This document shows positions 44,883-52,506 of a stretch of DNA of 64,000 nucleotides, piece after piece. A model generated the notes under the pieces. It was not told the DNA's origin and did no database searches. It saw only the letters and a list, made by a program, of their open reading frames with translations. The DNA is taken from the NCBI RefSeq assembly GCF_024502345.1, contig NZ_JALDNN010000001.1, one strand, 5' to 3'. Source of the stretch: Escherichia coli. Lineage in GTDB: Bacteria; Pseudomonadota; Gammaproteobacteria; Enterobacterales; Enterobacteriaceae. Position 1 is the first letter of the stretch, and each line of letters opens with the position of its first letter. A program made the position numbers and the translations under genes.

Positions 44883-46505
44883 TCAGCCTAGGGCCGCGCG
44901 TATCCGCTGCTTCCAGTCGAACACCCGGGCATGGTTGGCCCCAGATGAGCTTTCTTTCGGGTGATGCACAGAGTGCAAAGGCTCACAGTACTTCGCCATG
45001 GTGCCTGGCCAACGCAACGAGCCTTTCACTGTTCCCCTCAAGATCCTGTCTATGCATTTTCCTGCCTCAACACCTGCTTTGAAGCCCATGATCCGCGTTG
45101 ACATGGTCTTCCGGTTGTCTGAGGTATCTATTTCTAGAAGGTAGCGTTGATCGCCGTTTTGCAGCTTGAACCTTGCCAGCAGATAGCAGCGTGATTTTTC
45201 GTGATCAATCATGTGGTAGCTGCAACGTGGAACGGGCGGCAGAGGCCTCACTTCCAGTGCTACCAGCGCAACTCCAGACTCTTGGGTGATTTGTTCAAGA
45301 ATCTCTCGGAGCAGCGAGAAGCGATCTGCAAGCCGTTCATGCTCGTCCCCATCACCCTCTCCCTCACCCAATTGTTGGAATTCTCCTGACGCTATGCTGC
45401 CCTCGCTCACAGGATCAGCCACGCCGAAGAGTTGGCTTTCTCTGCTCGGGCATTGCTCGTCGTCGACCTTCTTGCCATGACCGTTGGCACGCTCCCCGTT
45501 GTAGGCGATCTTGGTGCGCAGCTGAGCATCAAACGTGACTCCCTCAACGGGCAGATGAATCAACCTCTGCTCCTTGGCAGCAGTCGGCTCTTCGTCAGCA
45601 TCCACCTCCAACTCTTTCGCTCCCGATGGCACGGATACACAGCCTGTGTTCTCTCCCCTGACGGGTAACTTGAGAGCAGGGTGATGGAAAAAAATATCAC
45701 CGCGATGGCTAAACCGGAGCCCCTGAAGCTTTTCGATCTCCCAGACCAGCAATTCGTTGCTTTCCGGATCAAAGGGGCCTCGCACATCCATGGTGGTACC
45801 CGCGAGGGAAGTGGGTGCCTGAAAGTCGAACTGCCACCTGGCATACGCCGACTCTTGCAGTACCCGCTCTTGCCTTTGATTGAGGCTTTGCCAGATTGAC
45901 TCGAAGGATCGCCTCACATCCTGATTCAGCAGCAGCCAACTGAAATGGTCTCTGTATCCCTTGATTTTGAGAAGCTGACTTGGGGCCCCCGTCTTCGGGG
46001 GCGTATGGATATGAACAACATCGCCCTCTCTGTAGATCGTGAAGGCCATGTCCAAGCCATTCGGTGCGAAGGCTGCACGAACGATGAAGGCTGCGTGGAA
46101 GAACATTTTTCGTGCCAGCTCGAATTTCGGCAGCCAGACGGTCAGACCATCGACCTCGAACACAAAGCATCGCTGTCCAGATATCTCAGGATTTGCAGCA
46201 AGCCTTCTGGCCAGACGTGGGCACTCACCCAACTGCCTTTCCCGCCAGGTATCTATTGCAGGAAGCACCACCGTCTTCTTGAAACCACTGGGACGATAAG
46301 GAGCCCCTTCTTCGCCAAGAAACTCGCGACCAACGGCCAAGACACACGACATCTCCTGTGCGAACCGCTGCAGCTGCAGCTGACCGTTACGCTCAAAGAG
46401 AGCCGCCAACTGCCACTGGGCCGCCGGAGTCTTGGCCCTGAAAAAATTTCCAACGGCCAGCAACCTGGATCCGTTCGGGATCTGACGAAATACTGTCCTA
46501 TTCAA
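44883..46505 (-). CDS. tnsE: Tn7 TnsE-like target-selection protein
   Basis: 540-aa ORF in the tnsE position; blocks resembling Tn7 TnsE ([12 protein letters not shown]..., C-terminal ...[10 protein letters not shown]...HPKE). Confidence 0.7.
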
Positions 46506-48000
46506 TCCATCTTCCTATCAATCGAATGAACGCAGTGGTCAGTGGTGCCACCCTGCTTTTTTCCAATCCACAACGCTTTTCCAGCTCCCAGCGCCTAGAC
46601 GTTATGCCTGTCTGTACATCCTTCAGCATCGCTGCAGTCAGGCGACGGATCTGATACTCGCCGACGGACTCGGCATAGCGATCCAGGAAGGTGCAGCAAA
46701 GAGGCAATTGATCGAGACGGTGCTCGACTGATGCCCGATGGGGTAGCTGCTGCAGGAACCAGTTGCGACTCCTGCGCGGAAGGCCCAGGTCTTCTTCGCT
46801 ACCTCTACCAATCCGGATCAGCAGGCGCACCAACCTTATGTCACGCGCTCGCCAGTCGATGTGGCTGTTGTTGCCCTGTCGGCGCTGCCTGACCTGGTTC
46901 GCAACCATCAGCCAGTGTCGGTCATGACGATAGAGCCAGGCGTAACATGCCCCTGCTCCGTCTTGCCTGGCTGCCTTGGCTCCACCGTGATTAGCCAGTG
47001 CTTGCAGCCAAATGGCTCGGTACTGCTGCTTTTGCTCAAACTCAGCAGGGAGCAGCTGCACTGACCGCTCGGAGGCAAGGTCGACCTGGCGAGTCTTCGC
47101 CTCGCTGATCAGCTCGCCAGCATGCTGGCCAGGGCGCAGGCTGGTCCAGACGATCAGATGCTGCAGCGCACTGAATCCCTTGCGATGCTTCCTGAACATC
47201 GCCAACAGCCAAGGTGGAGGCTCTCCGGATGTCAGCAGACCGTTCGCAGCAAGCCAATCCCTTTGATGGGATGCCAGGATCTTCTCCCAGATGACTTCAG
47301 CCCTGACCTGCCGGCCTCGCCTGGCGCCGCACTCTGTAGCCAGGTACCGGTACAGGTTGGTCCAGCGTCCGTAGCCAGGCGATTGCACCTCTTCGAGCGC
47401 CAGCAGCTGCATAGCAGCCTTGGCGAGCCTGATAGCCTCTTCGCCCACGGGACTCACGCGAAGATCACGGGGCAGAAACAGTGGAGAGGCTGTATGAAAC
47501 TCGTGCCGCTGCGCTCGACGGAACGGGATAGGTGAGTTCAGGAGCTGACAGCCATGCTCGGGACAGGCATCTATCCCTTGAATCTGCCAGCTGCGCCGCC
47601 AGTAGGGTTCACCGTAGCGCGCAGCCATATCTTCAAAGCAGATCGGGCAGTAACGCAGCCAATCGGGCCACTTGACCAAGGCCGTCGAGGCCCCAGACAG
47701 ACCAATCGTCGGCCGGTCGGGAGCAAGCATGGCCTGAAAAAGATCGGTACGGCGCTCCGGCGGAATGAAAGGGGCATAGAGCGGGAACAGCGTGTGATTC
47801 AGGATCATGCCTTCCGCATCCAAGCCCGTGTTGTTCGCCAACGCAGTCAGGTGTGTGGGCAGATCGGTGATCGCGGCAACCTTGCTGTCACCGAAAAGCA
47901 TGTGCAGCAAGGTCTTGTGGCTGCCTATCCCCAGATGTACCCGGCACCGGGCAATACCGCTGTAAAGCAGTTCGTCCGGGTAGAGCCTGGGGAAGTACAT
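46498..48000 (-). CDS. tnsD: Tn7 TnsD/TniQ-like target-selection protein
   Basis: 500-aa ORF MYFPRLYPDELLYSGIARC...; zinc-finger-like RYCPICF...CPEHGC; FRKHRKGFSALQHLIVW and YAWLYRHDRHWL blocks. Confidence 0.8.
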   Translation of the reverse strand: MYFPRLYPDELLYSGIARCRVHLGIGSHKTLLHMLFGDSKVAAITDLPTHLTALANNTGLDAEGMILNHTLFPLYAPFIPPERRTDLFQAMLAPDRPTIGLSGASTALVKWPDWLRYCPICFEDMAARYGEPYWRRSWQIQGIDACPEHGCQLLNSPIPFRRAQRHEFHTASPLFLPRDLRVSPVGEEAIRLAKAAMQLLALEEVQSPGYGRWTNLYRYLATECGARRGRQVRAEVIWEKILASHQRDWLAANGLLTSGEPPPWLLAMFRKHRKGFSALQHLIVWTSLRPGQHAGELISEAKTRQVDLASERSVQLLPAEFEQKQQYRAIWLQALANHGGAKAARQDGAGACYAWLYRHDRHWLMVANQVRQRRQGNNSHIDWRARDIRLVRLLIRIGRGSEEDLGLPRRSRNWFLQQLPHRASVEHRLDQLPLCCTFLDRYAESVGEYQIRRLTAAMLKDVQTGITSRRWELEKRCGLEKSRVAPLTTAFIRLIGRWIE

Positions 48001-51692: not shown

Positions 51693-52506
51693 TGCTCAGC
51701 TCCTGATGCATTTGATGAGAGTTGGCAACCAGGTCTTTCGGCTTCAGCTCCCGGTAAGGAGTGTCAAGATCGAAAAGGAAACAGTGCCGGGCCAGCAACT
51801 GGCGTAGCCAATAGAGCGCCTGACCGGCCTCCAGCTGGCCGGAGGTATCCAGTCCTTGGGCAATAGCGGTCAGCTTCCGGTCTGGGTGACGCTGAAACTC
51901 GAGCAGAAACAGCTGCTGGTAATGGGCGAGATCGTCCTGAGCGATGTCGCCTTCAGCATGGGCAGGATAGAGCCATTGGATATTGGCAAATGCCACCTTG
52001 GATACCTCGCGCTCCGTAACGATGACCCAGGGAATACCTTTTTCCTGCCAGTAGCGCCTTTCAAGCTCAAGCCTCTCGATAACTTCAGGCTTCTGCAGGT
52101 CGGTACTGTACTTGGCCTGAATCGCGATGCTCGGGCGCTGAGGATCTTCGAAATCCACCAGAAAGTCGCTGGTCAGTACCTGCGGGGTACCCTTGTAACA
52201 ACCGTGGGGCAGGCCAAGCTCCTCGGCGATGCGCACCGTATCTTCGACCCGCATCGGAAACTGTTCACGGATATCGGTGACATGGGGAGACCGATCCAAG
52301 GTCAGGAAGATGGCCAGTTCAAGATCGGATAGAAGATGGTGTAAACGCCGGGTCTTGCTGCCAGGCAGGCGGTGGGAGCGACCCAGCGAGGACACGTCCC
52401 TTGTGTAGATGAACGGCTTGTAGTCTGATCCCTGGCCTTGACCACGCCCGTCCTTGAGCCTTCTATCGATCTGGGCCTGGGTCAGCCCCTTGAATGTTCC
52501 AGACAT
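51679..52506 (-). CDS. tnsA: Tn7 TnsA-like endonuclease
   Basis: 275-aa ORF MSGTFKGLTQAQIDRRLKDGRGQGQGSDYKPF...HHLLSDLELAIFL...TSDFLVDF...AIQAKYS; sits just inside the right transposon end. Confidence 0.9.
   Translation of the reverse strand: MSGTFKGLTQAQIDRRLKDGRGQGQGSDYKPFIYTRDVSSLGRSHRLPGSKTRRLHHLLSDLELAIFLTLDRSPHVTDIREQFPMRVEDTVRIAEELGLPHGCYKGTPQVLTSDFLVDFEDPQRPSIAIQAKYSTDLQKPEVIERLELERRYWQEKGIPWVIVTEREVSKVAFANIQWLYPAHAEGDIAQDDLAHYQQLFLLEFQRHPDRKLTAIAQGLDTSGQLEAGQALYWLRQLLARHCFLFDLDTPYRELKPKDLVANSHQMHQELSSVAR

Follow-up and report, generated by a model that had tools for sequence, protein, structure and literature searches.

Does a five-gene cluster in an Escherichia coli chromosome still form a working transposition system, and could it therefore carry a stress-tolerance locus from place to place? 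The cluster lies at 44883-52506 of the window (i.e., the whole 64,000-nt stretch of contig NZ_JALDNN010000001.1 that was analysed), where five contiguous open reading frames (ORFs) on the minus strand resemble the tnsABCDE genes of transposon Tn7 and share one element with a transmissible stress-tolerance locus (tLST), also called the heat-resistance locus (LHR). The question has practical weight: tLST/LHR allows E. coli, Klebsiella and their relatives to survive heat treatment, chlorine and pressure, and its spread bears on food safety and hospital hygiene. We conclude that 44883-52506 encodes all five proteins of the transposition system of a Tn7-family transposon bearing tLST/LHR, and that this transposon is very probably competent for transposition.

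The five tns genes are complete and keep the functional residues of Tn7

A first-pass annotation of this DNA, made from the letters alone, had proposed five full-length tns ORFs with conserved catalytic motifs and overlapping stops and starts, and had suggested that the element may still move. An ORF listing and translation check returned exactly the coordinates and sizes it had given, and none of the five ORFs contains an internal stop. Specifically, the cluster comprises tnsA (51679-52506; 275 aa, ATG start), which encodes the endonuclease subunit for 5'-end cutting; tnsB (49605-51692; 695 aa, GTG start), the DDE transposase for end binding, 3'-end cutting and strand transfer; tnsC (48002-49612; 536 aa, ATG start), the AAA+ regulator; tnsD (46498-48000; 500 aa, ATG start), a TniQ-family selector for the glmS/attTn7 target; and tnsE (44883-46505; 540 aa, TTG start), the selector for replicating or conjugating DNA. 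The overlaps are also there: 14 nt between tnsA and tnsB, 8 nt between tnsB and tnsC and 8 nt between tnsD and tnsE, with a single base between tnsC and tnsD. RefSeq annotation already calls the five proteins Tn7-like, and its records differ in the start of TnsE, some giving 540 aa and others 526 aa (14 codons downstream). The 540-aa form is plausible because a Shine-Dalgarno-like AGGAAG lies 6 nt upstream of the TTG, and because a global alignment to the 538-aa TnsE of Tn7 begins at residue 1.

Hidden Markov models (HMMs) of the NCBIfam collection named none of the five proteins and gave only weak, uninformative IS481/ISNCY matches to the TnsB core; identification was instead made by comparison with PDB and Pfam. 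Formal alignments to the Tn7 proteins found every residue checked to be conserved, in agreement with what the first-pass annotation had read by eye. TnsA aligned with PDB entry 1f1z over residues 7-271 (E=2e-60) and matched the Pfam domains Tn7_TnsA-like_N (4e-20) and Tn7_Tnp_TnsA_C (5e-18). Its E63, D114, Q130 and K132 occupy identical positions in Tn7 TnsA and fall within the motifs LSDLE (residue 59), TSDFLVDF (residue 112) and QAK (residue 130). TnsB aligned with PDB entry 7pik over residues 4-691 of 695 (E=2e-187), and its D272, D360 and E395, found in the motifs IDATIAD (271), LADKGE (358) and GIVE (392), align with the DDE residues of Tn7. We take the latter to be numbered D273, D361 and E396, in keeping with the PDB chain, whose offset is +1. 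TnsC matched PDB entry 7mbw (E=1e-122) as well as Pfam AAA_22 and TniB; it carries a Walker A motif (GCSGCGKT, 141-148) and a Walker B motif (LIIDEVQ, 234-240), and is 41% identical to Tn7 TnsC over 437 aligned residues, the alignment reaching the C-terminus, which binds TnsA in Tn7.

The two target selectors are diverged from their Tn7 counterparts. TnsE matched Pfam TnsE_C (9e-44) and PDB entry 5d16 (E=2e-10) in its C-terminal domain, and is 23% identical end to end to Tn7 TnsE. Its best-conserved N-terminal block (11 residues; PxxELARxxF) aligns with PQLELARSLFL of Tn7, which we take to be the sliding-clamp-binding motif of Parks et al. 2009. A conserved N-terminal motif of TnsE has been stated in general terms to mediate the clamp interaction (PMC4678854). 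At the position of Ala453 in Tn7 TnsE the window protein has Thr, the state found in most TnsE homologues; the Ala453 change has been reported to render TnsE responsive to gain-of-activity mutations (PMC4678854). TnsD matched the solved Tn7 protein (E=1e-46) and Pfam TniQ (5e-29) and TnsD, and is 36% identical end to end to a 508-aa Tn7 TnsD from plasmid pG527. Its CCCH zinc finger (C118, C121, C146 and H149) aligns with C124, C127, C152 and H155 of Tn7, the residues needed for attTn7 binding (PMC2918618). Among the five proteins, TnsA and TnsB are the closest to Tn7 by score. Judged by its sequence, the element belongs to the Tn7 family, in the prototypic tnsABCDE clade.

The transposon has two defined, asymmetric ends

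We located the tips of the element from the positions at which matches to other genomes stop. E. coli matches of the tns region end exactly at 52626 and those of the left region begin exactly at 23617, which delimits a Tn7-like transposon of 29,010 bp (23617-52626, minus strand) in which tnsABCDE occupies the right end and the left holds the tLST/LHR cargo. The terminal 19-mer TGTGGGATGCAAATAAAG(G/T) occurs twice in the window, in inverted orientation and with one mismatch, compared with 0.01 occurrences expected; the minus strand at 52626 reads TGTGGGATGCAAATAAAGG. The right end (52561-52626, minus strand) consists of a terminal TGTGGGAT followed by three contiguous repeats resembling TnsB sites (AAATAAAGnTTCATyC; 16 bp, 20-bp spacing; 52601-52616, 52581-52596 and 52561-52576), and its tip is 120 bp from the start of tnsA. 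The left end (23617-23842, plus strand) has the same terminal TGTGGGAT, followed by three dispersed repeats of this type within 226 bp (23627-23642, 23772-23787 and 23827-23842), the middle one being weaker, with 4 mismatches. When up to 3 mismatches were allowed, the rest of the 64-kb window, beyond these two ends, held no further match to the 16-mer.

In Tn7 itself, TnsB sites are dispersed in the left end and contiguous in the right. The asymmetry seen here is of the Tn7 kind, and we regard the repeats as putative TnsB sites. The tip of Tn7, TGTGGGCGGACA, was also considered as the end of the element and was rejected: its 48 matches are at chance level (63 expected).

With these parts in place, we infer the mechanism by homology to Tn7. 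TnsB would bind the three repeats in each end, and excision would follow from cuts by TnsA in the 5' strands and by TnsB in the 3' strands, which the AAA+ ATPase TnsC would license only once a selector had marked a target. TnsD would mark the 3' end of glmS, and the element would then enter about 23 bp downstream of the gene, its right end proximal; TnsE would mark DNA that is being replicated, usually conjugating plasmids and other mobile DNA. Either way, insertion would be expected to produce a 5-bp duplication.

Sister copies point to recent movement

We searched 5,426 complete E. coli genomes with the tns region and found it at 80 places in 63 genomes (50 chromosomal and 30 on plasmids, with up to 3 places per genome), mostly with at least 99% identity. 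Joints and ends were read in about a dozen copies, five of which were inspected at both ends. All five are flanked by perfect 5-bp target duplications, at five different sites: CCAGT in the chromosome of G3/10, ACGTC on the plasmid of 873.10, GTTGC in the chromosome of strain 81 (within a prophage integrase gene), AAATG in the LR536430 chromosome and GGGCT in the chromosome of TC24. The TC24 duplication lies 21-25 bp past the glmS stop codon with tnsA proximal, a position that corresponds to the attTn7 geometry described for Tn7 (PMC2918618). The same glmS joint is common to six genomes, including the chromosome of 873.10, and the TnsD of these glmS-site copies is 94% identical to that of the window. 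Strain 873.10 (L003, NZ_CP061754.1) thus has two copies, one at glmS in the chromosome and one on a plasmid of 268 kb, which is the pattern expected from the two targeting routes of Tn7. The plasmid copies in general, and the chromosomal sites other than attTn7, fit TnsE targeting.

Several of these copies are nearly the same in sequence. The Tns proteins of the window are 100% identical to those of the G3/10 chromosomal copy and differ from those of the 873.10 plasmid copy by one residue, in TnsE; at the nucleotide level the difference is only 3 nt in 7,744 nt. The presence of near-identical copies at several sites supports well the view that the element has moved recently. At longer range, comparison with TC24 and with one plasmid each of P. 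aeruginosa and K. quasipneumoniae (Tns proteins roughly 65-99% identical) gave ratios of non-synonymous to synonymous substitution rates (dN/dS) of 0.05-0.24 for each of the five tns genes, indicative of purifying selection on all of them. Relatives of TnsE were found on 186 plasmids, 82 of them in Klebsiella, with others in Escherichia, Enterobacter, Pseudomonas and further genera.

These data also bear on a different explanation, namely that the element is an intact-looking fossil which no longer transposes and has spread in E. coli only through carriage on plasmids or islands and homologous recombination. One joint is indeed common to the window, LR536430, ABWA45 and C 236-04A, and another to S43, 2021CK-01361 and EC2001; much of the spread therefore reflects descent or carriage within larger mobile DNA. 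That this accounts for all of it is nevertheless very improbable. Two further distinct right-end joints were seen, bringing the number to at least seven among about a dozen copies; the target duplications are perfect in all five copies inspected at both ends, despite tns regions that are about 97-99.96% identical to the window; a version of the element bearing an IS21-family insertion occupies two sites, each with its own duplication; and dN/dS is well below 1 in all five genes.

We also weighed the observations that speak against a transposition-competent element in the window. A simple scan for promoters and terminators stayed at chance level overall and gave nothing upstream of tnsA, where no consensus sigma-70 promoter was recognised. 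The Pfam model Tn7_TnsC_Int, which describes the TnsA-binding tail, matches TnsC weakly (E=0.13). Some sister copies have decayed: tnsB of strain 81 carries Q618*, tnsA of the LR536430 assembly is frameshifted by a 1-bp insertion, and the tns genes have been lost on two plasmids. The window copy itself has no target duplication (TTCAC on the left, 23612-23616, versus CATTT on the right, 52627-52631), and an empty-site search with the joined flanks found the two contiguous in no complete E. coli genome. Decay of the element thus does occur, but the window copy is not decayed. The earlier suggestion that the element may still move is upheld by the intact ends, by sister copies with duplicated targets, by copies at attTn7 and on plasmids, and by purifying selection; from sequence alone, we infer that the window copy would be expressed and active.

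The two plasmids without tns genes, p888-46E9a (L006, 11581-32559) and unnamed14 (L007, 25422-32669), keep the left end and tLST. Of tnsE, only the last 48 codons remain, and a sil/pco copper-silver resistance region lies alongside.

The two joints of the window copy appear to come from different events

Since the flanking pentamers differ and the flanks are not contiguous elsewhere, the present position of the element is not the record of one clean insertion. The window covers the gpt-pepD-fadE-ivy-yafV ... aspV region (tRNA-Asp at 62156-62232). The right joint of the window copy is that of the aspV-island insertion in LR536430, ABWA45 and C 236-04A. In LR536430 this joint belongs to the copy with the AAATG duplication, which has a YagK/YfjJ gene on the left of the element; its left flank differs from that of the window copy, and the ancestral left flank of the aspV-island insertion reads …AAGGCCATTT. 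The left flank of the window copy is a yafV-proximal segment of a type VI secretion system (T6SS) locus (Tle1, DUF3304 and DUF4123), as in strain 33F4, and the joint cuts the DUF4123 gene about 100 bp in, exactly at the transposon tip. Because there is no target duplication, and because the right joint is that of the aspV island while the left lies in a truncated T6SS gene, the sequence indicates that the two joints derive from different events. As the breakpoint falls exactly at the tip, a separate act of the transposase is the most likely source of the left joint.

The simplest readings of this arrangement are a deletion bounded by DUF4123 and the left tip, an exchange between two copies of the element, or recombination with incoming DNA in which the element served as one crossover site. 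We consider it likely that the machinery is intact and the window copy is a hybrid of two events, through either two-copy recombination or a deletion ending at the left tip; this adds to the explanation of a transposition-competent element rather than replacing it. Besides the absence of a duplication and the two differing joints, it is favoured by the location of both flanks, with a common orientation, in a single yafV-aspV region, and by a breakpoint exactly at the tip, which points to a transposase-made joint. It draws no help from the distribution of single nucleotide polymorphisms (SNPs): binned along the element against G3/10 and LR536430, these gave no left/right pattern and no clear chimeric signal, with patches only in the S1C protease gene in LR536430, in clpK in the window and in a 46-nt repeat at the edge of the IS21 insertion. 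Whatever their origin, the odd joints leave the ends and the tns genes undamaged.

Hybrid joints could also have been created during assembly from two 29-kb copies of the element in the source genome. Genomes with two and three copies exist, and 873.10 has both a glmS and a plasmid copy. We nevertheless regard such an artefact as improbable, as both flanks map to one yafV-aspV neighbourhood with consistent orientation, which would be unexpected of a random mis-join.

A further proposal, which we find rather doubtful, is that the element is naturally biased towards the TnsE route and, separately, that the left joint arose through a Tn7-type event that was intramolecular or replicative. The element occupies glmS in only 6 of the 63 carrier E. 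coli genomes, although attTn7 is seemingly free in nearly all strains. Of the 80 places, 30 are on plasmids, and the chromosomal non-att copies that were inspected lie within prophage, island or plasmid-like DNA; plasmids and other mobile DNA together hold most copies. The Thr of TnsE at the position of Ala453 is a further point in favour of the bias. If the proposal were true, the left joint would represent a natural adjacent deletion caused by a Tn7-family element, removing about tens of kb of the T6SS locus.

The surroundings of the element show further losses. On the left, 17207-23616 holds a T6SS effector remnant beside yafV, with a protein resembling those of integrative and conjugative elements, an ISAs1 transposase, a Tle1-like phospholipase, DUF3304 and the truncated DUF4123; VgrG and Hcp of the strain 33F4 T6SS locus are missing from the window. 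On the right, the island at 52627-62204 contains a hypothetical gene, type III restriction-modification genes, DUF4391, a helicase gene and CP4-like genes up to tRNA-Asp. It is 99-100% identical to LR536430 apart from four internal deletions of about 1.4, 2.4, 4.5 and 2.3 kb, whose joints have 2-5 nt overlaps and which leave the restriction and helicase genes truncated in the window.

Relation to Tn7 and to other Tn7-like elements

The element resembles Tn7 in gene order and protein sizes (273, 702, 555, 508 and 538 aa for TnsA to TnsE of Tn7), in catalytic and functional residues, in TGTGGG... termini with asymmetric TnsB-type repeats, in 5-bp duplications, and in having copies inserted about 23 bp downstream of glmS, right end proximal, as well as copies on plasmids. 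It differs in the divergence of its proteins, in the Thr that replaces Ala453 of TnsE, in tips that part from those of Tn7 after TGTGGG (so that TGTGGGCGGACA is absent), in having three detected right-end repeats where Tn7 has four, in its presence at glmS in no more than 6 of 63 carrier genomes, and in its cargo, which is tLST/LHR rather than a class 2 integron.

More distant relatives, the Tn6022-type and CRISPR-associated Tn7-like transposons, have the TnsA/TnsB/TnsC core and a TniQ-family selector in common with the window element (PMC10293859), but use other selectors (TnsF, Cascade or Cas12k) and other attachment sites, whereas the window element is linked to glmS. The tnsE gene is confined to E. 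coli Tn7 relatives and Tn6022-type elements and stands in the core operon only in the former (PMC10293859); in Tn6022 it lies far from that operon, whereas in the window it is the fifth gene, as in the Tn7 relatives.

A link between tLST/LHR and Tn7-like elements is known from the literature, as the Tn7-like naming is from RefSeq. The Tn7-like transposon of P. aeruginosa CF39S carries LHR genes together with tdcA, and its cargo is syntenic with the E. coli heat-resistance locus (PMC8012707). According to a 2021 review, Tn7 elements can flank tLST, with complete-genome data too scarce for systematic analysis (PMC8290217). In the portions of these two papers available, ends, duplications, attachment-site use and tns integrity are left undefined. 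The nearest Pseudomonas relative inspected, plasmid p201330-IMP, has TnsA-D 83-95% identical to those of the window, other cargo and a disrupted tnsE. For the E. coli element, the searchable literature yielded no account of its ends, its duplications, its use of attTn7 or the integrity of its tns genes, and no name or Tn number. We thus consider it an uncharacterised member of a well-known family.

For transposon biology, an ordinary, textbook relative of Tn7 holds little surprise, and the practical interest lies in how tolerance to heat and chlorine spreads. A complete Tn7-type transposon, its ends now defined, has one common E. coli version of tLST as its cargo, and the use by this element of both the safe site at glmS and plasmids suggests how tLST could pass between chromosome and plasmid, by a route that is concrete and can be tested.

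The tLST/LHR cargo

The cargo spans 24139-43614 (minus strand), as delimited from our ORFs and the RefSeq annotation of copies that align to the window element over its full length at about 99.5-99.95% nucleotide identity. It comprises genes for an S1C (degP-like) protease, htpX, psiE, a GGDEF gene, a kefB-like antiporter, trx-GI, hdeD-GI, yfdX2, yfdX1, hsp20-GI, a truncated ftsH, cls/PLD (phospholipase D), clpK, a small heat shock protein (sHSP) and a helix-turn-helix gene. The core set of tLST is present (sHSP, clpK/clpG, hsp20-GI, yfdX1/2, hdeD-GI, trx-GI, kefB-GI, psiE-GI and degP-GI).

The IS21-family insertion (istA/istB; 29485-32031, minus strand) separates trx-GI from the kefB-like antiporter gene. 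The window, G3/10 and LR536430 copies have it, and those of the 873.10 plasmid, strain 81 and TC24 lack it; the 46-nt repeat at its edge is present in a different number of copies in the window than in G3/10 and LR536430. At about 8.4-13.3 kb of the element, the identity of the cargo to the copies of 873.10 and strain 81 is as low as 87%, which suggests a mosaic of tLST variants. The truncated ftsH gene (36897-38231) encodes about 444 aa, compared with 609 aa in those two copies. Finally, between the cargo and tnsE, RefSeq annotation of the matching stretch in other copies places remnants of other mobile elements (43800-44800), consisting of transposase fragments along with a short piece of an 'ATP-binding protein'.

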